From contig QNFJ01000001.1 of NCBI GenBank assembly GCA_003646305.1, positions 1-41,794 of the forward strand: a DNA stretch of 41,794 nucleotides, read 5' to 3'. Positions 26,472 to 40,652 of the stretch are shown here, in pieces (within the stretch, counting starts at the first letter, position 1; each line of letters starts with the position of its first letter). Both the position numbers and the translations under genes were made by a program. The notes beneath the pieces are model-generated. The model saw only the letters and a program-made list of their open reading frames with translations, made no database searches and was not told the origin of the DNA. The DNA is from Gammaproteobacteria bacterium. Lineage in GTDB: Bacteria; Pseudomonadota; Gammaproteobacteria; Methylococcales; UBA2780.

Positions 26472-27649
26472 TAACTCCTGCGCTGATTAAAGGTACGGCC
26501 ATAACATTGAGCGGCAATGGTGTTGCGAAGAATTTCCGGTGTACCGCCACCGAGTGAGAAGCCCCGCGCATCACGAACCATGCGTTCAAGCGGATAATCT
26601 CGACAATAGCCATAGTGACCGTGAATCTGTAGAGCTTCATTGGTGATTCTTTGCGCCATTTCATTGGAATAGAGTTTTGCCATCGCGCAGTCATGCGGGT
26701 CTGGGAAACCATTTTTAAGATTGGTGGCGGCGCGATAAACCATCAAGCGCGCGGCGTGCAATTGAGTGGCCATATCGGCTATTTTCCACTGAATACCCTG
26801 AAATTCAGCAATGGGTCGGCCAAACTGTTTGCGTGTTTCACTATAGGCCAGCGCGGTTTCGTAAGCGCCTTGAGAGATACCGACACACATGCCAGCATTG
26901 CCGACCCGTTCGGGGCCGAAAGAGCTCATCAGCCGCTTAAACCCCTCATTACTGTAGGGTGTCGCTTCAACAATAATATTTTCTTTCGGGATGCGGACAT
27001 TATCAAAATGGAGCTCGGCCTCTTTGACCCCACAGCCGCCCATTTTGCGTTCGGGCTTTCCGGTGGTGAAACCTTCCATCCCTTTCTCGACCAGTACCGC
27101 TCCAATCCCACGTGCTCCCTTGCTGTCACCAAAGCGGGCAAAGACCATTGAGTGCGTGGCCTCTATGCCAGCAGTGGTAAAGCACTTTGTGCCATTGAGA
27201 ATATAATCATCACCCTCTTTACGGATATTGGTGCTGAGATCAGTCACCGCTGAACCGGCACCCGGTTCGCTAATGGAAATGGCGATAAGGTAGTCACCTT
27301 TGACTACACCAGGCAGGATGCGCTGTTTCTGTTCTTCTGTACCGAGTTCAGCCAGTGCTTTAGCGGGGCCATTGAGGTATAGCTGGCCGACCAGTGCGGT
27401 GTTAAAACAGACACGGGCAAGCTCTTCAAGAAAGACAACGCCATGAATAAGGGAAAGCCCCGAGCCACCGTAAGCCTCTGGAACCAACATGCCGAGATAA
27501 CCTAATTCGGCAAGCAGGTTTTTATTGGCTTCGGGATATTCCTCATGCTCATCCCAATAGGCAGCGCGTGGGGCGAACTCTTTTTCGGCGAGTGATCTCA
27601 CTTCGTGCCGAAAGGATTCCAGCTCATCGTCTAGTTTAAATGAGAACAT
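26471..27649 (-). CDS. acyl-CoA dehydrogenase family protein
   Basis: 392 aa with ISEPGAGSAVTD and a helix-G Glu (SFGPERV). The C-terminal motif is SLGGGTPEILRN. Confidence 0.9.
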   Translation of the reverse strand: MFSFKLDDELESFRHEVRSLAEKEFAPRAAYWDEHEEYPEANKNLLAELGYLGMLVPEAYGGSGLSLIHGVVFLEELARVCFNTALVGQLYLNGPAKALAELGTEEQKQRILPGVVKGDYLIAISISEPGAGSAVTDLSTNIRKEGDDYILNGTKCFTTAGIEATHSMVFARFGDSKGARGIGAVLVEKGMEGFTTGKPERKMGGCGVKEAELHFDNVRIPKENIIVEATPYSNEGFKRLMSSFGPERVGNAGMCVGISQGAYETALAYSETRKQFGRPIAEFQGIQWKIADMATQLHAARLMVYRAATNLKNGFPDPHDCAMAKLYSNEMAQRITNEALQIHGHYGYCRDYPLERMVRDARGFSLGGGTPEILRNTIAAQCYGRTFNQRRS

Positions 27650-28126: not shown

Positions 28127-29299
28127 TTATTTTTTTGTTTTGCCGATGGCACCGGCTGCTTCAAGGTTTTTAATTTTATTGTCTGAAAATCCCCAGTGTG
28201 AGAGCACCTGATAGGTGCTGTTTCCCGCCGCTTCAGGTGGTGTGGGTTGCGCGGTTTTAGTTCGACTAAACCGGGGGCTGGGGGCTGGTTGGGTAATACC
28301 GTCGACCGTTATAAATGTTCCGCGATGTTGGTTATGTGGATGATCGGCCGCTTCGGCCATATTTAGAACCGGCGCAAAGCAGGCATCCGTTCCTTCTAAA
28401 AGTGCGCACCACTCATCCGCTGTTTTCTCGACAAACCGGGTTGCGAATAGCTGTTTGGCATGTGGCCAGTTGTTGCGGTCGTCGAGGTCTGGAAAGGTTG
28501 CTGGATCAAAGCCGATACGGGTCAATAATTCTTTACAAAATTTGGCCTCTATCGGTGCAATGGTGATGACGCCCTGTTCAATTAAGTCGAGCATAGCATC
28601 GATGACAACGCCGGAATGAATGCCAATATCACAATGATTTTTAAGGTTGCCTAGTACCGCATGAGGAATGCCGCCAACACCAACTTGAATGGTCGAACGG
28701 TCGGGAATAAGTGTGCTGGCCAATTGGCCAATCTGCCATTCAACCGCGCTTAGTTGAGGGGTAGATAATTCGACGGGCGGATGGCGAGCCTCAACAAAGA
28801 GGTCGATATTAATATCAGCAGGTAGATCGGCTCCATAACTATAAGGCACATCGGTATTAATTTCGGCAATCACGACCCGTGCCCGGCGAGCGGCTAATGC
28901 GGTGTAATCGTTACATAAGCCGAGATTTAGTTGGCCGCTTTCAGGGTGCTGGGAAAGTTGTAGTAAAACGCAATCTGCTCGAAGGGAACCATCATAAAAA
29001 GCTTGAGAAAAGGCGCTGTATTGCTGTGGAAGTTGGTCAAGAACACCAGCCTTTGCCAGAGCAGCTGCCTGACCGATGCCCCCGTAGGAATAAAAAGAGA
29101 GGTGGTCGCTCTGTTCAGCTTTAAAGGTGTCTGAATAGAGCGCCCCAAGAAAGAGGGTGCAGCCACTAATCTCCTCTCTTTCAGCGACCAGTTTTTGGGT
29201 GAGGGTGAGCGGTTCGGCCGTGCATTGCCCACAAATAATATGATCGCCCGCGCGAAGATAATCTTTAAAATGAAAACTATCTGCCGAGACGATCTTCAT
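28127..29299 (-). CDS. In-frame chimera: N-terminal domain of an acetyl-CoA hydrolase/transferase-family protein fused to the C-terminal half of an alpha-methylacyl-CoA racemase (family III CoA-transferase fold); possibly a deletion-generated pseudogene
   Basis: 390 aa. Residues 1-246 follow the acetyl-CoA hydrolase/transferase pattern (VVIAEINTDVPYSYG, TIQVGVGGIPHAVLGNL, DIGIHSGVVIDAMLDLIEQGVIT). Residues 247-390 match the AMACR/MCR C-terminal half (IAPIEAKFCKELLTRIGF, WPHAKQLFATRFVEKTADEWCALLEGTDACFAPVLNMAEAADHPHNQHRGTFITVDGITQPAPSPRFS). The junction is near nt 28556-28566. Confidence 0.6.
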   Translation of the reverse strand: MKIVSADSFHFKDYLRAGDHIICGQCTAEPLTLTQKLVAEREEISGCTLFLGALYSDTFKAEQSDHLSFYSYGGIGQAAALAKAGVLDQLPQQYSAFSQAFYDGSLRADCVLLQLSQHPESGQLNLGLCNDYTALAARRARVVIAEINTDVPYSYGADLPADINIDLFVEARHPPVELSTPQLSAVEWQIGQLASTLIPDRSTIQVGVGGIPHAVLGNLKNHCDIGIHSGVVIDAMLDLIEQGVITIAPIEAKFCKELLTRIGFDPATFPDLDDRNNWPHAKQLFATRFVEKTADEWCALLEGTDACFAPVLNMAEAADHPHNQHRGTFITVDGITQPAPSPRFSRTKTAQPTPPEAAGNSTYQVLSHWGFSDNKIKNLEAAGAIGKTKK

Positions 29300-29315: not shown

Positions 29316-30482
29316 TCAATAGGACTTCGGTAGCCCGAGAACCCTTTCGGCGATGTAGCATAAAGCGAGTTGTGGGCTGATGGGTGCGATACGTGGCACC
29401 ATCACTTCACGAAGATAGCGCTCCACATGATATTCCTTTGCATAACCAAAACCACCATGCGTCATAACGGCTGTTTCACAGGCATGAAAACCGGCTTCAC
29501 CGGCGAGGTATTTGGCCGCATTAGCCGCCGCGCCACAGGGTTTGCCGTTATCGTATTGCCAAGCTGCGGACATCACCATTAACCAGGCCGCTTCCAGCTC
29601 TGACCAGCATTTGGCGAGTGGGTGTTGAATGCTCTGATTTTGACCAATGGGGCGATTAAAAACGATCCGCTCTTTGGCGTAATTGGTTGCCCGTTCTATG
29701 GCCAGTCTGCCGAGTCCAATCGCCTCTCCAGCAATCAGCACCCGTTCAGGGTTCATGCCATGTAGAATATATTCAAAGCCACGACCCTCTTCACCGATTC
29801 GATCCTCAATTGGAATTTCAAGGCCATCGATGAATAGCTCATTTGAGTCAACACATTTACGACCCATTTTATCAATGAGGTGTACATCGATTTTGCTGCG
29901 GTCGAAATCGGTATAAAAGAGGCTCAGTCCCTGAGTCGGTTTTTTAACTTCTTCGAGTGGTGTTGTCCGTGCCAGGAGGAGGATTTTATCGGCCACTTGC
30001 GCGGTAGAGATCCAGACTTTTTGGCCATTAACGATATAACGATCTCCTTTGCGAACGGCCATGGTTTTTAGCTGTGTCGTGTTTAGGCCGGTATTGGGTT
30101 CGGTGACACCAAAGCAGGCTTTTTCTCGTCCCTCAGCCATGGGTCTTAGCATCCGCTGTTTTTGCTCTTCGGTGCCAAAAACAGCGACAGGATTGAGACC
30201 AAAAATATTGATATGCACCGCTGAAGCTCCTGACATGCCCGCTCCGGACTGGGCAATGGTGCTAGCCATGATGGCCGCTTCAGTAATGCCTAAGCCCGAA
30301 CCCCCATAGGCTTCAGGAATGCAGATGCCGATCCATCCCCCATCGGCCATGGCACGATAGAAGTCGTGGGGGAAAATGCCGTCGGTGTCGCGCTGTAACC
30401 AATAGTCATCATCAAAATCACGGCATATTTTCTGAATCGAATCCTGGATACTGTTTTGGTCGTCTGTCTGTTCAAAATTCAT
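29316..30482 (-). CDS. acyl-CoA dehydrogenase family protein
   Basis: 388 aa with VTEPNTGLNT and a helix-G Glu (GMNPERV). The C-terminus is unusual: VPRIAPISPQLALCYIAERVLGLPKSY. Confidence 0.9.
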   Translation of the reverse strand: MNFEQTDDQNSIQDSIQKICRDFDDDYWLQRDTDGIFPHDFYRAMADGGWIGICIPEAYGGSGLGITEAAIMASTIAQSGAGMSGASAVHINIFGLNPVAVFGTEEQKQRMLRPMAEGREKACFGVTEPNTGLNTTQLKTMAVRKGDRYIVNGQKVWISTAQVADKILLLARTTPLEEVKKPTQGLSLFYTDFDRSKIDVHLIDKMGRKCVDSNELFIDGLEIPIEDRIGEEGRGFEYILHGMNPERVLIAGEAIGLGRLAIERATNYAKERIVFNRPIGQNQSIQHPLAKCWSELEAAWLMVMSAAWQYDNGKPCGAAANAAKYLAGEAGFHACETAVMTHGGFGYAKEYHVERYLREVMVPRIAPISPQLALCYIAERVLGLPKSY

Positions 30483-30485
30483 GAT

Positions 30486-31739
30486 TTAATTCTCTACTTT
30501 GTATTGTCTGGTGATGTCCTCCGGGGACTGAATAACCTTTTGTTTAAGCATCTCGTCGATCTGCTGCTTTGTATAACCGGCCTCTTGCAGTAACTCGATG
30601 CTGTGCTCACCTTGCCGAGGTGCTGGTCGGATTGGCTCTGCGGAGCTATCAGACCAGGTGGCCGGAACAGCCATAGAGAGGATATCGCCTTCTGTTGGAT
30701 GGTTTTGATGACGGAAGAAGTTGGTCGCAATGAGGTGGGGGTCTGACTGGATACTGTTTAAATCATGCATCGGCATCACCGGAATATCAGCTTTGTTGAG
30801 AATCTCAAGCCACTCTGCGGTGCTTCTGGTTTCCATCATGCCGGAGAACCACTTATAAACCGCATCAAAATCTTTAGCGCGGGAAGAAAAGTCTTTGAAA
30901 AGTGGATCGGTTTCTGGAATATCTTCGCGTCCAATGGCTTTAAAGAAGTGATTCCAATGTTTATCGGTATAGACCAGTGCACAGACATAGCCATCTTTGG
31001 TTTTATAAGGGCGACGGTATTTCGATAGTTGACGCGGATAGCCGCCATTATCAAGTGGGGGTTCGTAAGTGAGGCCGCCCATATGATCGCCGAGAGTGAA
31101 GCTGGTCATGGTTTCGAACATGGGAATATCGACACGTTGCCCTTTTCCGGTTCGATCTCGGTGAACCAGTGTTGCCAAAATCGCTCCCACAGCGGCCAGC
31201 CCGACAACACGGTCTGCGATGGCCGAAGGAACATAGCGGGGCTCTCCGCCGTCAACGCGTGTAAAAAGATGGGGCAGGGTTGATGCGCCCTGGATCAGGT
31301 CATCATAGGCCGGTTTTGCGGCATAAGGCCCCTCTTGCCCGTAACCAAACATCCCCGCGTAAATAATACGAGGGTTAACGGCTGAAACCACCTCATAACT
31401 GAGGCCAAGACGTTTCATTGCATTGGCACGGATGTTATAGACAAGGATATCGGCATTGGCACACAGCTTTAACAGCGCTTCGCGCCCCTCATCCTGTTTT
31501 AAGTCGAGGGTAATGGAGCGTTTACTGCGGTTTGCATTTAGAAAGATAGGGCCCATTCCAGGATTGCGGAGCGGGCCGATTGTGCGGACAAGATCTCCTT
31601 CTGGAGATTCGACCTTAATGACATCAGCCCCATAATCGCCGAGGGTCTGCGTTGCGTAAGGGCCCATTAATACGGTTGTCATATCAATAATGCGGACGCC
31701 CTCTAAAGGCCCTTTGTTGGTGGGCTCAGATTGGTTCAT
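30486..31739 (-). CDS. family III CoA-transferase (CaiB/BaiF family)
   Basis: 417 aa. The N-terminus has GVRIIDMTTVLMGPYATQTLGDYGADVIKVE. The conserved Asp region is SAIADRVVG. Confidence 0.9.
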   Translation of the reverse strand: MNQSEPTNKGPLEGVRIIDMTTVLMGPYATQTLGDYGADVIKVESPEGDLVRTIGPLRNPGMGPIFLNANRSKRSITLDLKQDEGREALLKLCANADILVYNIRANAMKRLGLSYEVVSAVNPRIIYAGMFGYGQEGPYAAKPAYDDLIQGASTLPHLFTRVDGGEPRYVPSAIADRVVGLAAVGAILATLVHRDRTGKGQRVDIPMFETMTSFTLGDHMGGLTYEPPLDNGGYPRQLSKYRRPYKTKDGYVCALVYTDKHWNHFFKAIGREDIPETDPLFKDFSSRAKDFDAVYKWFSGMMETRSTAEWLEILNKADIPVMPMHDLNSIQSDPHLIATNFFRHQNHPTEGDILSMAVPATWSDSSAEPIRPAPRQGEHSIELLQEAGYTKQQIDEMLKQKVIQSPEDITRQYKVEN

Positions 31740-32086
31740 TTAGAAACTCCGTGTGAATTGAGAGCGCAACTAAAGGCCTGGTTAGCCCAGTCGATTAATT
31801 CACTGTCATTTTCCAGCAGTTCATCAGGAGACTGGAAGTAGTTAAGGCAGATGGTTTTCCCTTTTTTTGAGTAAGAAAAAGGAGGGAGGTTATTTGCCTG
31901 AAAAACTGCAGCGCTCTTTTTGTCTGCTTTCAGGTAAAGAACGTCATCGGCAACCAGTGCAAACATCAACCCTTCAATAAAAAGCCCATAACAGCCGAAC
32001 ATTTTTTTTGCGATCACAGGCCCCATGGGTTGTAGCCGGTCAATGAGATAGCGGGTGAACTCATCAGTTTGATGGGTCTTGACCAT
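31736..32086 (-). CDS. TfoX N-terminal-domain protein (stand-alone)
   Basis: 116 aa with KKMFGCYGLFIEGLMFALVADDVLYLKAD, which matches my recollection of the TfoX_N pattern. Its stop overlaps the CoA-transferase start (ATGA type, 4 nt). Confidence 0.65.
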   Translation of the reverse strand: MVKTHQTDEFTRYLIDRLQPMGPVIAKKMFGCYGLFIEGLMFALVADDVLYLKADKKSAAVFQANNLPPFSYSKKGKTICLNYFQSPDELLENDSELIDWANQAFSCALNSHGVSK

Positions 32087-32092
32087 AATGAG

Positions 32093-32557
32093 TTAGATAA
32101 TTCCCTCTTCCAGGCTTGCAGCCATAAAAAGCCCCAGCTCTTCGCATTGGTCAATAAATTCTTCCTGAAAGTCACCTTTGCAAATAAGTGGCTCTTGTAC
32201 AACTTTCCATCTAAGCCCGGTTAATATGGATTCAAGAGCGCGCCTTGTGCCGGTGCCGTCGTTACCAGCCCGGATTAAAATGGCGCATGGCAATCCATCT
32301 GTTTTATCCATGCAGGGATAGTAATTTCGGTCAAAAAAATCCTTTAGTGCACCGCTCATGTAACCCAGGTTTTCTGGTGTGGCGAGAATGACAGCATCGG
32401 ACTTAATAACATCCTCTGCAACAGCGTCAAATGCGGGTATATACAACGCTTCGACCTGTTTTACCTCTTCATTCATGGCGCCTTTCAGTACGGCATCAAT
32501 CATCCGTTGTATGTTTGGAGAAGGTGCATGTGCAATGATGAGTAGGCGTTTGTTCAT
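32093..32557 (-). CDS. flavodoxin-like fold protein (NAD(P)H-dependent FMN reductase / flavodoxin family)
   Basis: 154 aa with LLIIAHAPSPN... and DAVILATPENLGYMSGALKDFFDR, typical of flavodoxin-like FMN proteins. Confidence 0.7.
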   Translation of the reverse strand: MNKRLLIIAHAPSPNIQRMIDAVLKGAMNEEVKQVEALYIPAFDAVAEDVIKSDAVILATPENLGYMSGALKDFFDRNYYPCMDKTDGLPCAILIRAGNDGTGTRRALESILTGLRWKVVQEPLICKGDFQEEFIDQCEELGLFMAASLEEGII

Positions 32558-32582: not shown

Positions 32583-33776
32583 TTATTTATTGGGTTTATC
32601 TAAGACAATTTGCATCTTCAGAAAGTTATCGATCTCTTCATCGGAGTAACCAGCTTCCTGCAAAATAGTATGATTGTGCTGGCCATAGTTGGGCGGCACA
32701 TTACGAAATTCTCCGGGTGTCCGCGATAACTTAATGGGAATGCCAGTACCTCTATAGTCGCCAGACTCTAAGACCATCTCCCGCGCTACGGTTTGTGGAT
32801 GCACCATCACGTCAGGGATGGTTTCAACCGGCCCTGCGGGTATGCCTTTGTTTATCAGTATTTGACAAAGTGCGCGGCCATCCGTTTTTTCCATCATATC
32901 TTCAAGAATGGCTCGCAATACAACTCTATTTTCAGTCCGTTTTCCGTTGTTTAGAAAGCGTGGATCAGCTGCGATCTCTTCGCGTTCAAGCAGCTTACAA
33001 AGACCTGCAAACTGACCGTCATTACCAATGGCTAGAAAGACTAAACCGGTTCTGGTTTTAAATAGATCATATGGGGTGATGCTGGGGTGCGCACTGCCGA
33101 GTCGTTCAGGCTCTTTTCCAGATAGAAACCAACTGGCAGCATGTGGGTGAAGCAGGCTAATCGCCGTGTCGTACAGGCTCACTTCCATTGATTGGCCAAG
33201 ACCCGATTTTTCTCGTTCGTATAGCGCAAGAAGAACCGCCGTTGCGGCATTCATGCCGGTGGTAATATCGACAATCGGTACGCCCACACGGATGGGTAAA
33301 CGTTGGGCTTCACCATTAATGCTGATTAAACCAGACATCGCCTGGGCTACTGCATCATAGCCGGGTGATCCGGCATAAGGGCCTGTGCTGCCAAAGCCGG
33401 TTACGCAGCAGTGAATCAGCTTAGGAAACTTTTTCTTAAGAACTTCCTCGTAACCGATACCCCATTTTTCGAGGGTGCCAATCTTAAAGTTTTCAACGAG
33501 AACATCCGCTTCTTGCAATAGGCGAAATAGAATCTCCTGTCCTGCCTTCTCACGAAGGTTAAGGGCGAGACATTTTTTATTGCGGTTAACACCGTCAAAA
33601 TAGGCACTGCCTCCCTCATGAAAAGGAGGCCCCCAGCCGCGAGTTTCATCGCCGGCAGGGGGTTCGATTTTAATGATTTCAGCGCCATGATCCCCGAGTA
33701 TCTGGGCGCACAAAGGGCCGCCCAGAACACGAGATAGGTCAATGACTTTTACACCATCAAGTGAGCCTTTTGACAT
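32583..33776 (-). CDS. family III CoA-transferase (CaiB/BaiF family)
   Basis: 397 aa. The N-terminus has GVKVIDLSRVLGGPLCAQILGDHGAEIIKIE. The conserved Asp is in VPIVDITTG. Confidence 0.9.
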   Translation of the reverse strand: MSKGSLDGVKVIDLSRVLGGPLCAQILGDHGAEIIKIEPPAGDETRGWGPPFHEGGSAYFDGVNRNKKCLALNLREKAGQEILFRLLQEADVLVENFKIGTLEKWGIGYEEVLKKKFPKLIHCCVTGFGSTGPYAGSPGYDAVAQAMSGLISINGEAQRLPIRVGVPIVDITTGMNAATAVLLALYEREKSGLGQSMEVSLYDTAISLLHPHAASWFLSGKEPERLGSAHPSITPYDLFKTRTGLVFLAIGNDGQFAGLCKLLEREEIAADPRFLNNGKRTENRVVLRAILEDMMEKTDGRALCQILINKGIPAGPVETIPDVMVHPQTVAREMVLESGDYRGTGIPIKLSRTPGEFRNVPPNYGQHNHTILQEAGYSDEEIDNFLKMQIVLDKPNK

Positions 33777-34928
33777 TTATAAAACAGCCTCGGTACCTAA
33801 TATAGAGGTCACCTGGCTCGAGAGAACGCCACCGTTGCCGTGTACTAGAGCCACTTCGGCATCGCTAACCTGACGATCACCACAGCCACCGCGTAGTTGG
33901 CGTACCGCTTCGATCAGAATAAAAATGCCGTACATGCCTGGGTGAACACAAGACAGGCCGCCGCCATTAGTATTAACCGGCAAGCTACCACCCGGTGCGA
34001 TATTGCCATTAGAGACAAAAGCGCCACCTTCACCTTTTGCACAAAAGCCAAGATCTTCCAGAAACAAGATGGTATTGATCGTGAAGGCGTCATATAACTC
34101 AACCACATCAACATCATCTTTAGTTAAGCCGGCCATATCGAAAGCGCGTTTGCCAGAGTCGAGTGCAGCGGTTGTTGTGAGGTCAGGCATTTGAGTGATC
34201 TGACGATGCCAATGAGCCGTGCCAGTGCCCATTAAATAAACAGGCTTATTAGGGAAGTCTTTAGCGCGTTCACTAGAGACCATAATAACCGCGCCACCGC
34301 CATCGGTTACTAAACAGCAATCGAGGAGTGATAATGGATCGCTCACCATTCTTGCGCTCATAACCTCTTCACGGGTTAAATCGGCACGAGAAAAAGCTTC
34401 TGGGTTTAATTGCGCCCATTTTCTGGCAGCAACAGCTACATCGGCCATGTTTTCACGGGTTGTACCATATTGGTGCATATGGCGTGCTGCAGCAAATGCG
34501 TAGGAGCTAATTGGGTAGCGAGGTTTGTAGGGTGTTTCATACGTCTGCTGCTCTGACATGGTAGCGAGTTTGCCACCCGCAGTGCGCTGGTTACTGCCGT
34601 AGCAGATTAGTGCGACCTCACACAGTCCATTCTTGATCGCCATCGCAGCATTTAATGTATGGGCGACAAACGATGATCCACCCACCATGCTGCCATCAGA
34701 AAAGCGCGGTTTGATACCAAGGTACTCAGCTGTACTGAGTGTTGGCATAAAGTGGTATGAAGAACCGGTAAACAGTCCATCAATATCGGAAAGTTTTAAT
34801 CCAGCATCGTCCAGTGCGTTATGGGTGGCTTCTGCCAAAATATCGAGCGGCATTCTGCCGTGTGCTTCGCCACATCCGGCTAGTCCAACGCCAACAATGG
34901 CGGATGATCCTCTTAATTCATGTGACAT
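33777..34928 (-). CDS. thiolase-fold (SCP-x/Ltp-type) protein apparently lacking the nucleophilic Cys; candidate aldolase subunit
   Basis: I place the start at the ATG at 34928 (MSHELRGSSAIVGVGLAG, with AAGAGG upstream). The track's longer ORF, reaching 35045, would overlap the DUF35 gene. Gly is at the nucleophile position (GSSFVAHTLNAAMAIKNG). It also carries NTNGGGLSCVHPG. Confidence 0.85.
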   Translation of the reverse strand: MSHELRGSSAIVGVGLAGCGEAHGRMPLDILAEATHNALDDAGLKLSDIDGLFTGSSYHFMPTLSTAEYLGIKPRFSDGSMVGGSSFVAHTLNAAMAIKNGLCEVALICYGSNQRTAGGKLATMSEQQTYETPYKPRYPISSYAFAAARHMHQYGTTRENMADVAVAARKWAQLNPEAFSRADLTREEVMSARMVSDPLSLLDCCLVTDGGGAVIMVSSERAKDFPNKPVYLMGTGTAHWHRQITQMPDLTTTAALDSGKRAFDMAGLTKDDVDVVELYDAFTINTILFLEDLGFCAKGEGGAFVSNGNIAPGGSLPVNTNGGGLSCVHPGMYGIFILIEAVRQLRGGCGDRQVSDAEVALVHGNGGVLSSQVTSILGTEAVL

Positions 34929-34932
34929 ATTC

Positions 34933-35331
34933 TTAAGCCTCTTTTGCTGGTGTGAAAACCACAAACGGCTCATCACTATCATTATTAATTTGTGCACAAA
35001 CTTGTGCGCCAATTTTGACCGCTTCAGCCTCAATTCCTTCCACACGGCTCATTAGTCGAGGGCCCTCTTCGAGCGTAACTAGGCAAACATTGTAATTGCC
35101 ACCACGCTCAGGTTTGCGACGAATCGTTGTGGTTGAGTAGACCTCACCTTTCCCCGAAAGTGGTTGCCATTCAAGTTCAAAGCTACCGCAATGAGGGCAG
35201 ACGATGCGCGGGAAAAAATGGAATTCACCGCACTTTTTGCATTTTGGTAATGCAAAAACTTCTTTTTTTAAATAGTCGGCATAAACCTTATCTGGGCCGG
35301 GCCCGACAGGAGAGGTGCTTATTTCACTCAT
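34933..35331 (-). CDS. DUF35 OB-fold / zinc-ribbon protein (thiolase-fold partner)
   Basis: 132 aa with a C-x2-C-x10-C-x2-C ribbon (CKKCGEFHFFPRIVCPHC). It lies 4 nt upstream of the thiolase-fold gene. Confidence 0.85.
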   Translation of the reverse strand: MSEISTSPVGPGPDKVYADYLKKEVFALPKCKKCGEFHFFPRIVCPHCGSFELEWQPLSGKGEVYSTTTIRRKPERGGNYNVCLVTLEEGPRLMSRVEGIEAEAVKIGAQVCAQINNDSDEPFVVFTPAKEA

Positions 35332-35387
35332 AGTAACTAATGCTCCTAAAAATTAAGTAGATTAATACGAATCCTGCAATAGGCTAA

Positions 35388-35397
35388 CAAACGTTTG
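35388..35397. promoter_or_regulatory. Perfect palindrome CAAACGTTTG within CTAACAAACGTTTG; candidate operator in divergent promoter region
   Basis: Read directly. It overlaps the candidate -35 box of the OYE promoter. It shares CTAACAAAyGTT with 1399-1410. Confidence 0.35.
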
Positions 35398-35423
35398 ACT
35401 CTCATTCAAATAGCCGTTATGTT
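35395..35423 (+). promoter_or_regulatory. Candidate sigma70 promoter TTGACT-N17-TATGTT for the OYE gene
   Basis: The hexamers and the 17-nt spacer were read directly. It lies about 48 nt upstream of the GTG at 35471. Confidence 0.4.
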
Positions 35424-35470
35424 TTTTACTTGAAAACAGTCTAATTCAATTTGAATGTTGAGGGTGCAGA

Positions 35471-36613
35471 GTGCAAATAAGCAAACCACTACTTTTCTCT
35501 TCATGGGAGATCGCTAAATTAAAGCTATCCAATCGGATCATGATTTCGCCAATGTGTATTTATCAGGCGGAAGCGGATGGGCTAGTATCGGATAAGCATC
35601 TGGTTCACTATGGGCAATACGCTTTGGGAGGCGCAGGACTAATCATAACGGAGGCAATTGCTGTAGAAGAAAGAGGAAGGATTAGTGGCTGGGATCTTGG
35701 GTTATGGGCTGATGAGCAAATCAAACCGCTCCGCAAGATAGTCACTTTCGCGCAGGAACAGGGTTCTAAAATTGGTATACAACTTGGCCATTCCGGGCTT
35801 AAAGGCTCGACGAGGCCGCCCTGGGAAGGGAATGGTTTTCTTGATGAAAGCGATGCGGAAAGAAATGCCAAACCATGGAAAACCGTAGGGCCGTGCGAAA
35901 ATTTATTGCCCCCAGATTGGCCTGCACCTAAAGTATTAACGACTCAGGAAATTGCAGAAGTGGTCGATGCGTGGGGTGATGCGGCGGCGCGAGCTGATGC
36001 TGCCGGATTCGACGTGCTGGAAATACATGGTGCGCACGGATATTTGATAAGCGAGTTTTTATCACCGCTGAGTAACACGCGTAAAGATGGCTATGGAGGC
36101 GAAGAGGGAAGAACACGATTGGCATGTGAAGTGGTTGAGTCGGTTCGGGCGAACTGGCCTGATGATAAACCGCTATTTTTCCGAATATCAGTGATTGATG
36201 GTGTTGATGTAGGTTGGTCGATTGATGATTCCATCAGCTTTTCAAAACAGCTTAAAAGAATGGGAGTTGATTTGATTGATTGCTCCAGCGGTGGCTTTAA
36301 AGTTGAGCGAGACAGAGCTATACCAAGGAAATTAGGCTTTCAAGTCTATCTGTCTGAAGCTGTTAAAGCTGGTGCAAATATCCCCACAGCGTCAGTTGGG
36401 TTGATCACTGAGCCTGACCAGGCGGAGACTATTTTGCAGAGTGGGCAGGCCGACTTGATTGCGATCGGCAGAACCGCGTTGAATAATCCTTACTGGCCAC
36501 GGCATGCGGCTCAGTATTTTAGTGTTGATGATAAGTTTGAGAATTGGCCGACTCAATATGGCTGGTGGCTTGAGCGCTGGGCCAAGACGTTGAATCGATG
36601 TGAAGACAGGTGA
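35471..36613 (+). CDS. NADH:flavin oxidoreductase, Old Yellow Enzyme family (YqjM/NamA-like)
   Basis: 380 aa with a GTG start. It has ISPMCIYQA, IGIQLGHSG, FDVLEIHGAHGYLISEFLSPLSNTRKDGYGG and DLIAIGRTALNNPYWP. Confidence 0.9.
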   Translation: MQISKPLLFSSWEIAKLKLSNRIMISPMCIYQAEADGLVSDKHLVHYGQYALGGAGLIITEAIAVEERGRISGWDLGLWADEQIKPLRKIVTFAQEQGSKIGIQLGHSGLKGSTRPPWEGNGFLDESDAERNAKPWKTVGPCENLLPPDWPAPKVLTTQEIAEVVDAWGDAAARADAAGFDVLEIHGAHGYLISEFLSPLSNTRKDGYGGEEGRTRLACEVVESVRANWPDDKPLFFRISVIDGVDVGWSIDDSISFSKQLKRMGVDLIDCSSGGFKVERDRAIPRKLGFQVYLSEAVKAGANIPTASVGLITEPDQAETILQSGQADLIAIGRTALNNPYWPRHAAQYFSVDDKFENWPTQYGWWLERWAKTLNRCEDR

Positions 36614-37204: not shown

Positions 37205-39130
37205 ATGTTGGGGACTGTTTATCGGAATAAAGATTATCAGGGCCGGATTGAGAGAGCCCGAGAGCAATTTCATTGTGGTTTTGAAGTAAACGAAGAAATG
37301 CTTTCCCCGCTTGTGCTCGAGTCATGGCAGCGATCCAGGCAATTTAACGTCAGTAGTAATTTGAGTCGAGCTCCCGAAATTGAGGGAAATGGCTTGACTA
37401 ATACGGAACAGGATTCGTACTTGGCGCTACGAAAAGCCGCACTACCCGTTATCAAGGATGCACGAAGGATTCTTGATGATAATCAGCTGCTTATGCTGCT
37501 AACTTCTGCTGAGGGGAAGATTATTGAGCGTGAGGGGAATCTGCGGTCGTTAAAAATAGCTGATTCACAGCAACTCATTATCGGTAGCAGCTGGACGGAA
37601 AGCAGTTGTGGTACAAATGCAGTGGGAATGGCTATTTCCCTGCAGCAGCCAGCACAGATTGTTGCCCATGAGCATTATTGTGAAATGGTGAAAGTCTGGG
37701 GTTGTGCGGCTGTACCGATCAAAGACTTGAGAGATGGACGTATGCTGGGCGTACTGGATACGACCGGTCCTGCGCATTCATTCGGCTCGATGAACCTTGG
37801 CTGGGTCAACTCAATGGCCTCATGCATTGCATTTCGATTGAATGAAGAGCGCAATTTATCAAAATATCGCTTGCTTGAGCACTGTATGGGGCAAGCTCGC
37901 AGGCTCTCCCAAGCTAACGTACAACTTTTTGATGAAGACGGTTTCCTGGTCTGGATGAGTGATTGGTTATTAACTAAGCAGTGTGACGTGACTCTTCTAG
38001 GGCATAATCAGATTGGCATGAGGTGGGATGAGATGGCTGTGAGTAGGCAACCACTAAAGAATCCCCCGCGAGATATTCAGGCAGATTGCTTGGAGCCCGT
38101 GGTCATTGGAGGCAGAATAGCTGGCCATTTGTTATTTATTCCGGTAAAAGTTGAAAAAAAAGTTACGAAAATAGCTGTAATAGAGGCTAGACAAAGCAGC
38201 TTGATTATTGGGGAAAGCGCTGTAACGGAGGGATTAAAAAATCTTGCGAAACGCTTTGCCTGTGTAGATGCGATTTGCACGCTTACCGGTGAAACAGGTA
38301 CGGGCAAAGAGGTTATGGCCAGAGAAATGCACGCTCTGGGAAATAGAGAGGGTGCATTTATTGCGGTGAACTGTGGCGCGATGCAAAAAGAGCTGCTTGC
38401 GAGTGAGTTGTTTGGTTATGCGGAAGGTAGTTTTACCGGTGCCAAGCGAGGTGGAATGATTGGGAAGTTTGAGGCGGCTAACGGGGGGACTCTGCTGCTT
38501 GATGAGTTTTGCGAACTCCCTCTTGAATTACAGGTTTATCTGCTTAGAGTTCTTGAAGAGCATGAAGTCGTTCGGATTGGGGAATCAAAGCCTCGTAAGA
38601 TTAATGTACGAATTATCGTCGCAACCAATAAAAACCTTGAAGAAGAGGTTGAAGCTAAGCGCCTGAGGGAAGATTTGTACTACAGAATCAATGCAAATAT
38701 GATTGAGCTGCCCCCGTTACGGGAGCACAAAGAAGATATTATGGTTTTGTTCGATCATTTCCTAGGTCGAGTTTCAAGTGAGAGTTGTGGGATAGCACCT
38801 CAATTAACCCCCTCTTTTATAAAAGCGTTGAAAGCGCACAGTTGGCCGGGCAACATAAGAGAACTCCGCAATTTTGCCGAAAATTGTTTTCTGATGAATC
38901 CAGGTGAGACGTTAACGGTAGAGCATCTTCCCAATAGAATGCTGGCATCCGTTTCTCGTAGCTCCGGTCAAGAGGAAAGTGCGTGTGGTTGTACGCTTAA
39001 AGAAGTTGAGCGGCAGGCGCTTGTGGAAGCATTGAGTCTTTTTGATGGGAATATTTCGAAGGCTGCACGGCACCTTGGTATTGCGAGAAGTACGTTCTAT
39101 AAGAAAATGGATGCATTAGAAAAGGATTGA
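37205..39130 (+). CDS. sigma54-dependent transcriptional activator, AcoR/AcxR-like
   Basis: 641 aa. The N-terminal sensory region has the AcoR-type LESWQRSRQF motif. The AAA+ domain has Walker A GETGTGKE, GSFTGA (GAFTGA motif) and LLLDEF. The C-terminal Fis-type HTH is NISKAARHLGIARSTFYKKM. Confidence 0.92.
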   Translation: MLGTVYRNKDYQGRIERAREQFHCGFEVNEEMLSPLVLESWQRSRQFNVSSNLSRAPEIEGNGLTNTEQDSYLALRKAALPVIKDARRILDDNQLLMLLTSAEGKIIEREGNLRSLKIADSQQLIIGSSWTESSCGTNAVGMAISLQQPAQIVAHEHYCEMVKVWGCAAVPIKDLRDGRMLGVLDTTGPAHSFGSMNLGWVNSMASCIAFRLNEERNLSKYRLLEHCMGQARRLSQANVQLFDEDGFLVWMSDWLLTKQCDVTLLGHNQIGMRWDEMAVSRQPLKNPPRDIQADCLEPVVIGGRIAGHLLFIPVKVEKKVTKIAVIEARQSSLIIGESAVTEGLKNLAKRFACVDAICTLTGETGTGKEVMAREMHALGNREGAFIAVNCGAMQKELLASELFGYAEGSFTGAKRGGMIGKFEAANGGTLLLDEFCELPLELQVYLLRVLEEHEVVRIGESKPRKINVRIIVATNKNLEEEVEAKRLREDLYYRINANMIELPPLREHKEDIMVLFDHFLGRVSSESCGIAPQLTPSFIKALKAHSWPGNIRELRNFAENCFLMNPGETLTVEHLPNRMLASVSRSSGQEESACGCTLKEVERQALVEALSLFDGNISKAARHLGIARSTFYKKMDALEKD

Positions 39131-39383: not shown

Positions 39384-39399
39384 TGGCATAAAGAATGCA
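39384..39399 (+). promoter_or_regulatory. sigma54 (-24/-12) promoter TGGCATaaagaaTGCA
   Basis: The GG and GC dinucleotides have canonical 12-nt register against TGGCACG-N4-TTGCW. It is about 60 nt upstream of the ATG at 39460 and immediately downstream of a sigma54 activator gene. Confidence 0.6.
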
Positions 39400-39459: not shown

Positions 39460-39730
39460 ATGGTAGCAGCAACAAAAGAGGTGCAGGGAAATAAGCCTGT
39501 TGAGGTTGAAAAAACGGTAGCCTATAAAATCAGTCAGCGAGATGAGTTAACCGAAAAAACGGGACACTACTGGGGAATTAAAGAATTCACGCTTAAAGAC
39601 AGTATCTGACCCAGTGAAGTTTGAGCGTTTTTATTCACGCCTGCAATCAGCCTGTATGGCGGCCAGAGAGATTTCTCGATTTGTTGCAGCTAGTCTGGGT
39701 GGTCGAGAAATGGGTGAGGCTGTGTGGGGG
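39460..39730 (+). pseudogene. 5' remnant of a second hydantoinase-B/acetone-carboxylase-alpha-like gene (frameshifted, then truncated)
   Basis: A good RBS (GGAGGG) precedes the ATG at 39460. MVAATKEVQGNKPVEVEKTVAYKISQRDELTEKTGHYWGIKEFTLKDSI ends in a stop at 39607-39609. The +1 frame continues DPVKFERFYSRLQSACMAAREISRFVAASLGGREMGEAVWG. Both parts parallel residues of the intact gene at 40653 (LEYKLQQRDELYKKTGHYWGVKELKLKEQDPIKYERFFSRIQSAVFAAREKARFVAASPGGREMGESLW). Homology stops at about 39730. Confidence 0.7.
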
Positions 39731-39732
39731 TT

Positions 39733-40579
39733 GGCAAGAAAGTACATGAAGCTGGGGGGAAGATTGCACCTCAGATCTGGCATACAGGGATGATGAGAGA
39801 GAAAGGAATGGAGCCTGATCCAGAAGAGATTGCTGTTGGGCCAAGCGATATATATAAGGATGTAGAGCTGGTGGCGCGTGGTCTTGGCCTGGATGAAATT
39901 GCAGAGATCGTGCTTGCTTATGCGCAAGCAGCGAAAGATGCAAAATCACTCGGTTTTGATGCGGTAGAAATCCACGGTGCACATCAATATTTAATCGATC
40001 AGTTTTTCTGGGAAGAAACCAATAAACGAACAGATGAATATGGGGGGGTAATAGAAAACCGTATTCGCTTTGGGAAAGAGGTTGTTGCTGCAGTACGGGC
40101 GGTAGTTGGCCCAGAATTTCCTGTTATTTTTCGTTTTTCGCAATGGAAACTACTGGATTACACAGCAAAAATTGCCAACTCTCCTGAGGAGTTAGGGAAA
40201 ATCCTTATTCCTTTGAGTGAAGCAAGGTGTGGACATTTTTCACGCCAGTACAAGGCGTTTTTGGGAGCCAGAATTTGAAGGATCTGATTTAAATTTGGCT
40301 GGTTGGGCGAAAAAACTGACCGGTAAACCTTCCATTACGCTAGGAAGCGTTGGGCTGGATAAGGAATTTAAGCTTGACCACTTTATAGGGACAGAAAATC
40401 CTGATGCAGGCACGACTGATATCAATGAACTGTGTAGCCGATTAAACAAAGGTGAATTTGATTTGGTGGCGCTTGGCCGGGCGATAATGGGCGATCACCA
40501 GTGGGTTAACAAAGTTAAGGCAGGCGATTTTGCGAGCATCAAACCCTTTGATAAGCACGCAATGGATACCCTCACTTGA
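39733..40579 (+). pseudogene. Old Yellow Enzyme-family flavin oxidoreductase remnant: roughly 80 N-terminal codons missing (estimated against the intact OYE at 35471) and one frameshift (about nt 40225)
   Basis: Track ORFs 39724..40278 and 40217..40579 together read KKVHEAGGKIAPQIWHTG...FDAVEIHGAHQYLIDQFFWEETNKRTDEYGG...LSEA/GVDIFHASTRRFWEPEF...DLVALGRAIMGDHQWVNK. There is no N-terminal FMN-binding segment. Removing the single extra A in GCAAGG restores the frame. Confidence 0.75.
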
Positions 40580-40652
40580 TGCCCTTTTTGTTAAAGAAAT
40601 GGTAAAACGGTAAGATCGAGAGAAAGTAATACTGACTTCCTGAGGAGGAAAA

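Follow-up and report, generated by a model that had tools for sequence, protein, structure and literature searches.

The DUF35/thiolase-fold gene pair that heads a tight 11-gene acyl-CoA operon in the 41.8-kb window (the whole stretch of DNA analyzed, 41,794 nucleotides from a gammaproteobacterium of the order Methylococcales) may encode a β-hydroxyacyl-CoA retro-aldol lyase, a reading to which we give a probability of about one half. We infer the aldolase activity from the two studied steroid-degrading relatives, TcLtp2 and CtSal; the ortholog group itself is known from its sequences and one crystal structure, 4U4E. The pair itself is a real and ordinary member of a bacterial family, and it is the family that is probably misnamed.

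Organization of the gene pair

The features are collected in Table 1. The initial annotation described a DUF35-first pair with a 4-nt gap, and the open reading frames and spacer are as it said: the DUF35 stop codon TAA is followed by the spacer and then by the ATG of the thiolase-fold gene. We place the thiolase-fold start at this ATG (residue 40 of a longer mechanical ORF) because 383-aa homologs cover 100% of the resulting protein. AGGAG precedes the DUF35 ATG, while the ribosome-binding site AAGAGG of the thiolase-fold gene lies inside the 3' end of the DUF35 ORF, suggesting that the two genes are translationally coupled. The DUF35 protein matches Pfams PF12172 zf-ChsH2 (45.6 bits, cutoff 23.2, E 6e-12) and PF01796 OB_ChsH2_C (58.6 bits, cutoff 27.1, E 6e-16); its C4 zinc ribbon, residues 31-48 (CKKCGEFHFFPRIVCPHC), has all four zinc ligands, Cys31/34/45/48 (nt 35188-35241). 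Pfam Thiolase_C_1 hits the thiolase-fold protein with E 1e-72. The coupling, the conserved adjacency and the homology to partners in 9MYR, 6OK1 and 7PXP suggest that the two genes probably encode the subunits of a DUF35/thiolase-fold complex, putatively an α-β-β-α heterotetramer as in the related complexes of known structure.

Table 1. Coordinates of the gene pair, its active-site codons, its operon and the second such pair in the window
Feature	Position	Strand	Evidence or remark
Divergent intergenic region, DUF35 gene / OYE gene	35332-35470	none	presumed operon promoter site
DUF35 protein, 132 aa	34933-35331	minus	C4 zinc ribbon + OB fold; stand-alone ORF, no hydratase fusion
Spacer GAAT, 4 nt	34929-34932	minus	sequence read
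Thiolase-fold protein, 383 aa	33777-34928	minus	NCBIfam NF004811/PRK06158; lacks both canonical catalytic cysteines
Gly84-Ser85-Ser86 codons, in place of CxS	34671-34679	minus	alignment to archaeal acetyl-CoA acetyltransferase 7YVY; codons checked
Arg169 codon	34422-34424	minus	aligns with CoA-pyrophosphate-binding Arg of CtSal (Arg216) and TbSLP (Arg197) (PMC12329534)
Tyr279-Asp-Ala281-Phe codons	34083-34094	minus	YDAF vs thiolase HDCF/HDAF; codons checked
Cys327-Val-His329 codons	33942-33950	minus	His329 is the thiolase GHP histidine, at the position of TcLtp2 acid Tyr344
Family III CoA-transferase 1, dicarboxylate type	32583-33776	minus	Pfam CoA_transf_3, E 8e-123
Flavodoxin-like (FMN_red) protein	32093-32557	minus	Pfam PF03358
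TfoX_N-domain protein	31736-32086	minus	Pfam PF04993, E 4e-30
Family III CoA-transferase 2, SUGCT-like	30486-31739	minus	best PDB 9BR6, 194 bits
Acyl-CoA dehydrogenase 1	29316-30482	minus	Pfam
Chimeric CoA-transferase ORF	28127-29299	minus	PDB hits split at about residue 245
MaoC-type (R)-specific enoyl-CoA hydratase, 153 aa	27651-28112	minus	Pfam PF01575; weak NCBIfam PaaZ C-terminal domain, RipB/Ich
Acyl-CoA dehydrogenase 2, short-chain type	26471-27649	minus	domain searches
Acyl-CoA dehydrogenase 3, last operon gene	25317-26471	minus	
Copy 1, thiolase-fold + DUF35 pair	14237-15418 and 15415-15855		gene order opposite to copy 2

Family and distribution

Against NCBIfam NF004811/PRK06158 (cutoff 421) the thiolase-fold protein reaches 666 bits over residues 2-382 of its 383. 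Its closest PDB entry is 4U4E (E 1e-117, aligned end to end), a match by which, on sequence, its fold is already fixed. It has more than 8000 homologs, with identities of at least 70% reaching across the alpha-, beta- and gammaproteobacteria; metagenomic relatives are 96% identical, and orthologs 61-72% identical were found in at least 572 genome stretches. We scored residue conservation over 121 orthologs and gene neighborhoods over 80 other genomes, and in about 78 of those 80 the thiolase-fold gene is immediately preceded by a DUF35 gene. What the initial annotation took for a peculiarity of this locus is thus the family-wide state of a very large and already catalogued family (PRK06158, 4U4E), and the inverted gene order that it found distinctive is simply the fixed order of the ortholog group. 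Every database name for the protein is "thiolase" or "acetyl-CoA acetyltransferase", and these names are automatic. Literature searches on the PRK06158/4U4E ortholog group (4U4E by name included) and on DUF35 with CoA-transferase and acyl-CoA dehydrogenase (ACAD) found nothing in the papers covered.

The window holds a second such pair, copy 1. The opposite order and the divergence of the two paralogs, both of which had been called correctly, come with 44% identity between the thiolase-fold proteins and 30% between the DUF35 proteins, and copy 1 falls below the NF004811 cutoff (383 bits against 421). It comes immediately after the biotin carboxylase gene, in the slot that an HMG-CoA lyase has in a related Polaromonas cluster. 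In a neighbor-joining tree of the C-terminal domain, copy 2 (the pair under study), copy 1, 4U4E, Ltp2 and Sal group together, with BbsB and an archaeal thiolase outside. It is plausible, from the presence of two modules, that the pathway would include at least two non-thiolytic C-C cleavages.

Catalytic positions

In a HMMER alignment the nucleophilic cysteine (CxS) of the AACASG motif of 7YVY falls opposite Gly84, and a MAFFT alignment puts Gly84 at the same position, as the initial annotation had it; residues 84-101 of the protein are GSSFVAHTLNAAMAIKNG. Gly84 is present in 121 of 121 orthologs and in 96% of the wider clade, and YDAF is likewise invariant among the 121. Tyr279 aligns with the histidine of VHDAF (7YVY) and of LHDAF (7PXP), so the HDxF histidine is missing; the acid/base cysteine of the SCP2-thiolase HDCF motif (PMC12329534) is Ala281 here and in all 121 orthologs, and the C-terminal CxG position has no cysteine. 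Proper alignment, a check by which the earlier reading was to stand or fall, therefore finds neither canonical catalytic cysteine. The description "Cys-less" holds for the catalytic positions but not overall: three of the protein's eight cysteines (C204, C205 and C296) are invariant, and a fourth, C327, is almost so. We considered and rejected a misalignment hiding the nucleophile (Ser85, Ser86 or a nearby cysteine), because the x of GxS is A, S, C, T, Q or G across the clade and that site has no conserved cysteine.

His329 (VHPG, the oxyanion-hole GHP histidine) and Arg169 are each present in 121 of 121 orthologs, the latter also in 92% of the clade, and the NxNGG motif is conserved; together these suggest an active acyl-CoA enzyme and not a relic. 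We infer that covalent thiolysis is impossible for the complex, though binding of acyl-CoA would be expected. Cys327, found in 118 of 121 orthologs (Phe in the other three), is a candidate proton donor. The ortholog group very often has a cysteine at 327 or 328; at position 327, BbsB, 4U4E and copy 1 have Tyr, and the wider Gly/Tyr clade has Tyr, Phe, His, Ser or Gln.

Comparison with characterized systems

The nearest characterized relatives are the retro-aldolases CtSal (9MYR, 197 bits) and TcLtp2 (6OK1, 187 bits), and true thiolases rank below both (7YVY 149, BbsB 136 and 6ESQ 124 bits). The best PDB matches of the DUF35 protein are again the aldolase partners, that of CtSal (9myr_B) ahead of that of TcLtp2 (6ok1_B), with BbsA the weakest. 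Gly84 and Tyr279 reproduce the glycine at the nucleophile position and the YDxF tyrosine of the Ltp2/Sal aldolases, and both are found in almost every one of 111 relatives that are 38-62% identical. To our knowledge, TcLtp2 and CtSal are the only biochemically characterized proteins with this combination. The YDxF tyrosine is the catalytic base, essential in TcLtp2 and CtSal, and for CtSal the replacement of the nucleophilic cysteine by glycine is said to make thiolysis impossible (PMC12329534).

The resemblance to either aldolase is incomplete. TcLtp2-ChsH2, a retro-aldolase of the steroid C3 side chain whose chemistry is the one proposed for copy 2, also has a DUF35 partner and shares the glycine, the YDxF tyrosine and the motifs LLDCC and GFCxxGE. 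It differs in having YDHF where copy 2 has YDAF, in having its acid Tyr344 at the position of His329, and in its DUF35, which forms the C-terminal domain of the ChsH2 hydratase subunit where copy 2 has a free-standing 132-aa ORF. The Ltp-type model NF005892 gives only 257 bits against a cutoff of 469. CtSal-CtShy, a retro-aldolase of the bile-acid C5 side chain (PMC12329534) and the second-best PDB match, shares the glycine, the tyrosine base and the CoA-binding arginine, but its essential Cys304 (YDCY) is Ala281 here, and it has Gln where copy 2 keeps His329. Its DUF35, with a C3H1 zinc finger, is part of a fusion with the Shy hydratase, in contrast to the free C4 ribbon of copy 2, and the Sal product is an aldehyde, with an aldehyde dehydrogenase gene clustered; the window has none. 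The unpublished 4U4E protein shares the VGGSSF, YDxF and LSxxHPGMYG motifs with copy 2 but reads YDSF and LSYTHP, which puts Ser and Tyr at the places of Ala281 and Cys327.

Among thiolases, BbsAB (7PXP) comes from an operon of similar layout, with a free DUF35 gene first, then the thiolase-fold gene, family III CoA-transferases, an ACAD and a hydratase, and BbsB shares the HDAF-type alanine and the GHP histidine. BbsB is nevertheless a true thiolase with His in HDAF where copy 2 has Tyr, and the copy 2 operon has no BbsCD-type dehydrogenase. The benzoylsuccinyl-CoA thiolase type was the identity that would have overturned the initial annotation; the BbsB equivalog gives 147.9 bits (cutoff 750) and the BbsA equivalog 35.9 (cutoff 250). 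These scores and the motif alignment rule out a conventional or BbsAB-type thiolase. PhlC/MucB-type thiolases have the same fold, a free-standing DUF35 binding the thiolase-fold subunit, and alignable CxS and GHx positions, but they keep the CxS cysteine, which is acetylated in PhlC and MucB, and their DUF35 forms a bridge to another thiolase-fold enzyme, of which there is none adjacent to copy 2. IpfDE of the ibuprofen pathway, which we set aside as a non-steroid precedent, is described only as a "thiolase" releasing propionyl-CoA.

HMG-CoA lyase and LiuE are metal-dependent TIM-barrel enzymes that convert a (tertiary) β-hydroxyacyl-CoA to a carbonyl compound and acetyl-CoA. These and other β-hydroxyacyl-CoA lyases are functional analogs only: they have the reaction type proposed here on an unrelated fold, with no sequence relationship.

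The operon and the window

The operon list of the initial annotation (two family III CoA-transferases, three ACADs and one MaoC hydratase) is right as far as it goes, but omits the flavodoxin-like gene, the TfoX_N gene and a chimeric CoA-transferase remnant. The start codon of CoA-transferase 1 abuts the thiolase-fold stop codon; the gene is conserved beside the pair in a Cycloclasticus MAG locus (L008), where the flavodoxin-like gene also has an 81% identical copy at the same position and ACAD 1 an 88% copy. Orthologs of ACAD 1 at 70-72% occur in betaproteobacterial clusters that hold the pair. The TfoX_N gene is unexpected for an acyl-CoA operon and is missing from the operons of relatives. 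The MaoC gene lies 7 kb downstream of the DUF35 gene.

The closest structures to CoA-transferase 1 are 4ED9, formyl-CoA transferase 10UH, SUGCT 9BR6 and YfdE. We therefore rejected the family III CoA-transferases as α-methylacyl-CoA racemases, a reading that would point to branched-chain or steroid substrates; racemases score only about 88-100 bits. A guess at the substrate from the other operon genes was likewise abandoned, as these accompany the pair only in close relatives and so say little about the family's substrate.

We found no sigma-54 -24/-12 site in 35332-35470, and no above-chance sigma-70 site there, promoter-like hits being fewer than in shuffled sequence. Control of the operon by the neighboring sigma-54 activator was rejected, as the only good nearby site (39384-39399) faces the other way; the count of sigma-54 sites across the window is below chance. 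Terminator-like hits in the scan were at about the shuffled level. An OYE gene near the pair is frameshifted.

The chimeric ORF joins the N-terminal ~63% of a family I (4-hydroxybutyrate-type) CoA-transferase in frame with the C-terminal ~36% of a family III CoA-transferase/racemase. A homolog search gave no full-length relative except itself, and it is probably a deletion scar, such that the operon may not be fully functional. A possible objection to any catalytic interpretation is that the thiolase-fold protein is non-catalytic in the source genome, serving as a partner for structure or substrate binding, or belonging to an operon in decay. The missing catalytic cysteines, this in-frame fusion of two truncated genes, unique to the genome, and the frameshift in the nearby OYE gene would all fit. 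Yet the protein is intact, full-length and 96% identical to metagenomic relatives, and the invariance of its active-site motifs at 61-72% identity across bacterial classes, with the kept DUF35 pairing, points to an active site that works and is under strong purifying selection. We regard a non-catalytic protein as very improbable.

The whole window has nine ACADs, four crotonases and three or four MaoC/hot-dog hydratases; a search of it found no SDR, no 3HCDH, no canonical thiolase, no HMG-CoA lyase, no aldehyde dehydrogenase and no steroid genes. The lack of hydroxyacyl-CoA dehydrogenase, canonical thiolase and aldehyde dehydrogenase favors a lyase. An acetone-carboxylase alpha-like gene lies 5 kb from the pair, and two related MAGs likewise have one close to their pair; the encoded enzyme might consume a ketone product. 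A literature search on Cycloclasticus with acetone carboxylase found nothing.

Proposed reaction

In the lyase scheme, the acid would be loaded onto CoA by the dicarboxylate-type family III CoA-transferase, an ACAD would make the 2-enoyl-CoA, and the MaoC hydratase would add water; the complex would then cut the Cα-Cβ bond to give a carbonyl compound and a short acyl-CoA, with no dehydrogenase or thiolase step anywhere. Tyr279 would take the proton off the β-hydroxyl, the Gly84 backbone and His329 would hold the hydroxyl and the enolate, and Cys327 or another residue of the 325-329 loop would reprotonate the enolate. The substrate may be a β-branched or otherwise β-oxidation-blocked (di)carboxylic acid, yielding a ketone or oxo-acid.

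Several points weigh against the lyase. First, copy 2 has neither of the aldolases' catalytic acids (His329 stands in for Ltp2 Tyr344, and Ala281 for Sal Cys304). Second, the GHP histidine and HDAF alanine are kept, and the site seems just two substitutions from BbsB and the archaeal thiolases. Third, orthologs elsewhere lie in an MFE-2 context, the operon partners are not conserved, and the operon is scarred.

The same oxyanion-hole residues would also stabilize an enolate formed by other cysteine-independent chemistry, namely decarboxylation of a 2-carboxyacyl-CoA (malonyl-type) or a synthetic aldol/Claisen condensation. Dicarboxylates are hinted at by the SUGCT-like CoA-transferases here and by TctC, DcaP and PauA-like genes elsewhere, and TbSLP (YDCF, without nucleophile) is a slow malonyl-CoA decarboxylase (PMC12329534). 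However, TbSLP turns over very slowly (kcat 0.005 per s) and CtSal lacks the activity (PMC12329534). The operon clearly serves catabolism, no feature of its context points specifically to a decarboxylase, and the clade-conserved tyrosine is explained by hydroxyl-directed aldolase chemistry. We consider either reaction decidedly unlikely.

Gene neighborhoods in other genomes

In the 80 other genomes, MaoC/MFE-2 hydratases lie within 7 kb of the pair in 51 and an MFE-2-like SDR nearby in 39; neighbors also include PimCD-like ACADs, and the commonest neighbors include no canonical thiolase and no aldehyde dehydrogenase. An MFE-2-type hydratase and SDR without another thiolase is the context expected of a thiolase step, which keeps a thiolase-like role alive: the pair may act on 3-oxoacyl-CoA and CoA in a β-oxidation-like cycle by a non-canonical mechanism, with direct CoA attack and no acyl-enzyme, or with a nucleophile relocated to Cys327/Cys328 beside the GHP histidine. 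The orthologs are typically flanked by a complete set of ACAD, MFE-2 hydratase and MFE-2-like SDR genes with no other thiolase within 7-10 kb, the frequent cysteine at 327 or 328 would supply such a nucleophile, and His329, the HDAF alanine, NxNGG and the CoA-binding arginine are kept as in BbsB and archaeal thiolases. All database names agree with this role, but they are automatic. Position 327, being Phe in three orthologs and Tyr, Phe, His, Ser or Gln in the clade, offers no conserved nucleophile; the window lacks a dehydrogenase for making the 3-oxoacyl-CoA, and we know of no thiolase without the CxS cysteine. That cysteine is Gly in every ortholog, the HDxF histidine is Tyr, and the glycine in CtSal is stated to exclude thiolysis (PMC12329534). 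A thiolase step is thus unlikely, if worth keeping in mind. Its extension to the whole PRK06158 group, as the real thiolase of a widespread MFE-2-type (di)carboxylic-acid β-oxidation working by direct CoA attack or through a relocated Cys327/Cys328, seems to us distinctly doubtful; if true, it would be a new catalytic solution in the thiolase superfamily.

Significance

For the locus alone the finding is modest, as the pair is an ordinary family member. We know of only two thiolase-fold retro-aldolases with a DUF35 partner, both steroid side-chain enzymes. The PRK06158 family is far larger, with thousands of sequences in Proteobacteria and beyond, no link to steroid genes and one unpublished crystal structure (4U4E), and its proteins are called "thiolase" by every database, yet none can have the thiolase nucleophile. 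The constellation Gly / Tyr-Asp-Ala-Phe / Cys-x-His differs from both aldolase types and would therefore be a third proton-donor solution. If the family is a β-hydroxyacyl-CoA lyase, many annotated β-oxidation clusters have been misread, and activities of this type that lack a gene, such as (1-hydroxycyclohexan-1-yl)acetyl-CoA lyase, would gain candidates. Such a lyase would provide a general route past blocked (β-branched) positions in the breakdown of hydrocarbons, terpenoids and dicarboxylates.

Gene pair and operon

The DUF35 gene and the thiolase-fold gene lead the operon as an adjacent pair (copy 2, see table). The mechanical ORF of the thiolase-fold gene runs over 33777-35045 (422 aa); we reassigned its start to the ATG at 34928, because all close homologues are 383 aa long and cover the protein fully. 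The DUF35 protein carries four zinc-ligand cysteines (31, 34, 45 and 48). At the gene junction the DUF35 stop codon TAA is followed by a 4-nt spacer, GAAT, and then by the thiolase-fold ATG, with AAGAGG lying within the 3' end of DUF35; this layout suggests translational coupling. Downstream of the pair, with gaps of −4 to 25 nt, come in order a family III CoA-transferase, a flavodoxin-like protein, TfoX_N, a second family III CoA-transferase and an acyl-CoA dehydrogenase (ACAD), then a 390-aa CoA-transferase-like ORF, a MaoC hydratase and two further ACADs. The ORF list and domain search agree with the initial annotation on the pair and its operon, except that three of these genes were missing from its list.

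Coordinates of the gene pair and other features in the window
Feature	Position	Strand	Details
DUF35 protein, 132 aa	34933-35331	-	ORF list; PF12172 zinc ribbon, PF01796 OB fold
Thiolase-fold protein, 383 aa	33777-34928	-	Thiolase_C_1, E 1e-72
TfoX_N and flavodoxin-like (FMN_red) genes	31736-32557	-	Mid-operon
Chimeric 390-aa ORF	28127-29299	-	Within operon; in-frame; two CoA-transferase parts
Copy 1 locus	10652-15855	+	Carboxyltransferase, biotin carboxylase/BCCP, thiolase-fold, DUF35
Biotin carboxylase/BCCP	12259-14247	+	After carboxyltransferase gene; stop codon overlapped by copy 1
Copy 1 thiolase-fold	14237-15418	+	Gly at nucleophile position, YDCF, LSYAHP
MmgE/PrpD-family gene	3-1340, off left edge	-	Weak 2-methylcitrate dehydratase model matches, far under cutoffs
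Intact Old-Yellow-Enzyme-type (OYE) gene	35471-36613
Sigma-54 activator	37205-39130	+	GAF, AAA+ and HTH domains
-24/-12-like site TGGCATAAAGAATGCA	39384-39399	+	Best such site in activator's neighbourhood
OYE-type gene, split	39718-40576 (39718-40275, 40217-40576)	+	Two overlapping frames
Acetone-carboxylase alpha-subunit-like gene, partial	40644-41792, off right edge	+	5M45_A, E 9e-59

The 390-aa ORF is chimeric: residues 3-248 resemble the N-terminal half of 4-hydroxybutyrate-type (family I) CoA-transferases, and residues 244-369 the C-terminal third of alpha-methylacyl-CoA racemase/family III proteins. A 5.8-billion-sequence database contains no second protein that spans both parts, and the nearest full genes encode a 420-aa Cycloclasticus protein (74%, N-terminal part) and a 396-aa CoA_transf_3 protein (77%, C-terminal part). 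Most likely the ORF is either a deletion that fused two adjacent genes or an assembly artefact. The flavodoxin-like gene is kept in a Cycloclasticus MAG (81% identity, L008 5384-5842); conservation at that locus does not extend to the TfoX_N gene or the second CoA-transferase.

Active site

HMMER alignment with the archaeal acetyl-CoA acetyltransferase 7YVY places Gly84 of VGGSSF at the position of the nucleophilic Cys in AACASG (CxS motif), and a separate MAFFT alignment again puts Gly84 there. The acid/base motif, which is HDCF in SCP2 thiolases (where it holds a Cys) and HDAF in 7YVY and BbsB, reads Y279-D-A281-F in the window protein; the GHP histidine is retained as His329. The glycine at the nucleophile position claimed by the initial annotation is borne out, and both canonical catalytic cysteines are absent on proper alignment; its term 'Cys-less' holds for those positions but not for the protein as a whole, which has eight cysteines. 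Three of these (Cys204, Cys205, Cys296) are invariant in orthologues and are general to the fold, as they are common to Ltp2 and/or BbsB; Cys327, two residues ahead of His329, is found in 118 of the 121 orthologues.

Gly83, Gly84, Tyr279, Asp280, Ala281, Phe282 and His329 show no variation among the 121 close sequences. Among 111 full-length representatives with identities of 38-62%, nearly all carry Gly in place of the nucleophile together with the Tyr of YDxF; the third position of that motif is variable (A, S, C, P, N), and so is position 327 (Y, F, C, H, S, Q, E). The clade-wide near-invariants are Gly84 (96%), Arg169 (92%), Tyr279 (88%), Asp280 (100%) and Asn319 (91%), with Arg169 aligned to the CoA-pyrophosphate Arg of CtSal and TbSLP. 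At the level of sequence, the Gly/Tyr signature is family-wide. Such strong conservation of intact active-site motifs argues against a non-catalytic or decaying role, which we regard as very improbable.

Relationship to known enzymes

The protein passes the NCBIfam model NF004811/PRK06158 (666 bits against a cutoff of 421) and falls below cutoff in the Ltp-type, archaeal thiolase and BbsB models; failure of the last disposes of a benzoylsuccinyl-CoA thiolase type, the outcome that the initial annotation had named as refuting its reading. Its closest PDB match is 4U4E, an uncharacterised entry named 'thiolase' (E 1e-117), and VGGSSF and YDxF are common to both. Bit scores were higher for the DUF35-partnered retro-aldolases CtSal (197) and TcLtp2 (187) than for 7YVY (149), BbsB (136) and 6ESQ (124). 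The DUF35 domains of Shy and ChsH2 come closest to the window DUF35 protein, and BbsA is its most distant match. A neighbor-joining tree of the C-terminal domain, rough, without support values and with reference sequences rebuilt from printed PDB-search alignments, groups copy 2, copy 1 (the diverged pair elsewhere in the window), the 4U4E group, Ltp2 and Sal in one clade, with BbsB and the archaeal thiolase outside.

Catalysis in SCP2 thiolases relies on a nucleophilic Cys and on the Cys of HDCF. TcLtp2 (6OK1) has base Tyr294 of YDHF and acid Tyr344, and CtSal (9MYR), in which Tyr302 and Cys304 of YDCY are catalytic, carries Gly in place of the nucleophile and 'cannot catalyze thiolytic cleavage'; a further protein, TbSLP (YDCF), is a suspected aldolase (Rolfe et al. 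2025, PMC12329534). In the window protein Tyr344 of TcLtp2 corresponds to His329 and Cys304 of CtSal to Ala281. DUF35 is fused to a hydratase in both of those enzymes, whereas the window DUF35 is free, as is BbsA. These differences count against placing the protein simply among the known aldolases. The trace malonyl-CoA decarboxylase activity of TbSLP (PMC12329534) would favor a decarboxylase-type or other enolate reaction, which we nevertheless consider improbable. From BbsB-type thiolases the active site differs mainly by Cys-to-Gly and His-to-Tyr, a small separation that speaks for a family performing the thiolase step by an unconventional route; this is the strongest rival to a lyase, though still an unlikely one, and genomic context bears on it further.

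Distribution and genomic context

A word-indexed search found >8000 homologues, the best 120 all at ≥69% identity and from alpha-, beta- and gammaproteobacteria; an exhaustive search of 50%-identity cluster representatives gave 12330 at E ≤1e-3 and 1407 at E ≤1e-30. One scan of species-representative genomes yielded at least 572 stretches with relatives, headed by MAGs of Cycloclasticus (92%), Porticoccaceae (85%) and Cellvibrionales (84%). The 61-72% tier holds Rhodocyclaceae, Rugosibacter, Immundisolibacteraceae, Ottowia, Hydrogenophaga, many roseobacters, Cupriavidus, Bordetella, Variovorax and the pseudomonads Pseudomonas nitroreducens, P. delhiensis and P. paraeruginosa; one Streptomyces and one Oceanobacillus are also among the matches of that scan. 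Many PLSDB roseobacter plasmids (Sulfitobacter, Pseudosulfitobacter, Roseovarius; e.g. NZ_CP031599.1, CP010856.1) have up to 5-6 separate matching places, at best ~67% identity. Cys-less thiolase-fold genes have, to judge by such matches, undergone a marked paralogue expansion on marine plasmids.

Among the best 80 loci, DUF35 lies directly upstream of the orthologue in ~78; DUF35-first order is thus fixed in the orthologue group, and the 'inverted gene order' proposed earlier reflects no inversion event. Within 7 kb of the pair at these loci we found ACADs (62/80), crotonases (52/80), MaoC/MFE-2 hydratases (51/80), MFE-2-like SDRs (39/80), family III CoA-transferases (36/80), AMP ligases (22/80) and a second thiolase-fold gene (5/80). 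Unbiased clustering of neighbor ORFs returned the same gene types plus TctC receptors and ETF, and neither aldehyde dehydrogenase nor canonical thiolase was represented among the 22 commonest clusters. Outside close relatives, the pair does not keep the operon partners that it has in the window.

Orthologues usually stand beside a full set of ACAD, hydratase 2 and MFE-2-type dehydrogenase with no other thiolase, as a thiolase-step enzyme would. However, this company is not decisive, because ltp2 has the same company in the mycobacterial cholesterol cluster, where Hsd4A/Hsd4B-like genes surround it. ChsH3/ChsB1 are named in PMC8204306.

A betaproteobacterial cluster recurs with the pair in Ottowia and on a Polaromonas sp. 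JS666 plasmid, where the pair is BPRO_RS26405/26410. One operon is ACAD-crotonase-carboxyltransferase-biotin carboxylase, followed in Polaromonas by HMG-CoA lyase; the divergent operon comprises 2,4-dienoyl-CoA reductase, ACAD, a PimD/PimC-like ACAD pair, DUF35, 'thiolase', (DcaP porin), SDR, MFE-2 hydratase, crotonase, ACAD and CaiB/BaiF transferase. In the window, several genes drawn from both operons (ACAD_a, ECH_a, carboxyltransferase, ACAD_1, CoA-transferase 1) are 52-72% identical to their counterparts, so the window is a rearranged relative of this cluster.

In the Polaromonas plasmid a DcaP-family dicarboxylate porin gene directly follows the 'thiolase' (L088 13429-14757). In Pseudomonas paraeruginosa ATCC 9027 (L031 9621-21056) a 715-aa ORF comes right after the orthologous pair, and the ORFs past it have sizes and order that we take to fit an MFS, ACAD, ECH, ACAD, SDR, NMO series, of which only the last ACAD and NMO are backed by similarity; judged by ORF sizes, the region presumably resembles the pauA pimeloyl-CoA synthetase region. 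The Pseudomonas ORF series and the Polaromonas porin point to dicarboxylic-acid substrates for the family.

Proposed reaction and surrounding genes

We propose, with a probability of about one half, that the pair is a beta-hydroxyacyl-CoA retro-aldol lyase: the nucleophile is missing, the Tyr that serves the aldolases as base never varies, residues for CoA binding and the oxyanion hole are intact, and the pairing with DUF35 is conserved. Dehydrogenases and hydratases are numerous in the window, yet it encodes no 3-hydroxyacyl-CoA dehydrogenase and no canonical thiolase, HMG-CoA lyase or aldehyde dehydrogenase. The two proteins would form a 2:2 complex in which Tyr279 takes the proton of the beta-hydroxyl, hydroxyl and enolate are held by the Gly84 backbone and His329, and Cys327 may donate the proton, a role proposed because this residue is near-invariant in orthologues and occupies a position that is Tyr in BbsB, 4U4E and copy 1. 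The operon would then run CoA-transfer, dehydrogenation, hydration and lysis. Both CoA-transferases are like dicarboxylate enzymes (SUGCT, YfdE, formyl-CoA transferase) and unlike racemases, and the missing aldehyde dehydrogenase suggests that the product is a ketone or an oxo-acid.

Any ketone that a retro-aldolase set free could logically be consumed by a ketone carboxylase; copies of the acetone-carboxylase-like gene with 81-83% identity occur a few kb away from the pair in the Porticoccaceae (L009 1107-2243) and Cellvibrionales (L010 2-604) MAGs. Copy 1 overlaps the biotin carboxylase stop codon, exactly where the Polaromonas cluster has HMG-CoA lyase (L088 1-142), and may be a non-orthologous replacement of that enzyme in a Liu/Atu-like carboxylation route. 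Its position and the acetone-carboxylase-like gene fit lyase chemistry in the locus circumstantially, and are no proof for copy 2.

The site TGGCATAAAGAATGCA faces the OYE-like and acetone-carboxylase-like genes, away from the DUF35 operon; window-wide, -24/-12-like sites are not above chance in number. The split OYE-type gene is probably a frameshift or pseudogene. Distant MmgE/PrpD relatives (27-38% identity) occur ≤10 kb from the pair in eight other genomes.

Thiolase-fold aldolases partnered by DUF35 are a known kind of system, and NCBIfam and the PDB already include this family, which is uncharacterised and almost certainly carries the wrong name. What is new is the free-standing DUF35, the context without steroid genes, and the constellation of Gly, YDAF and Cys-x-His, which matches neither Ltp2 nor Sal. 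The pair is a sound enzymology lead, if one unsurprising to a specialist.
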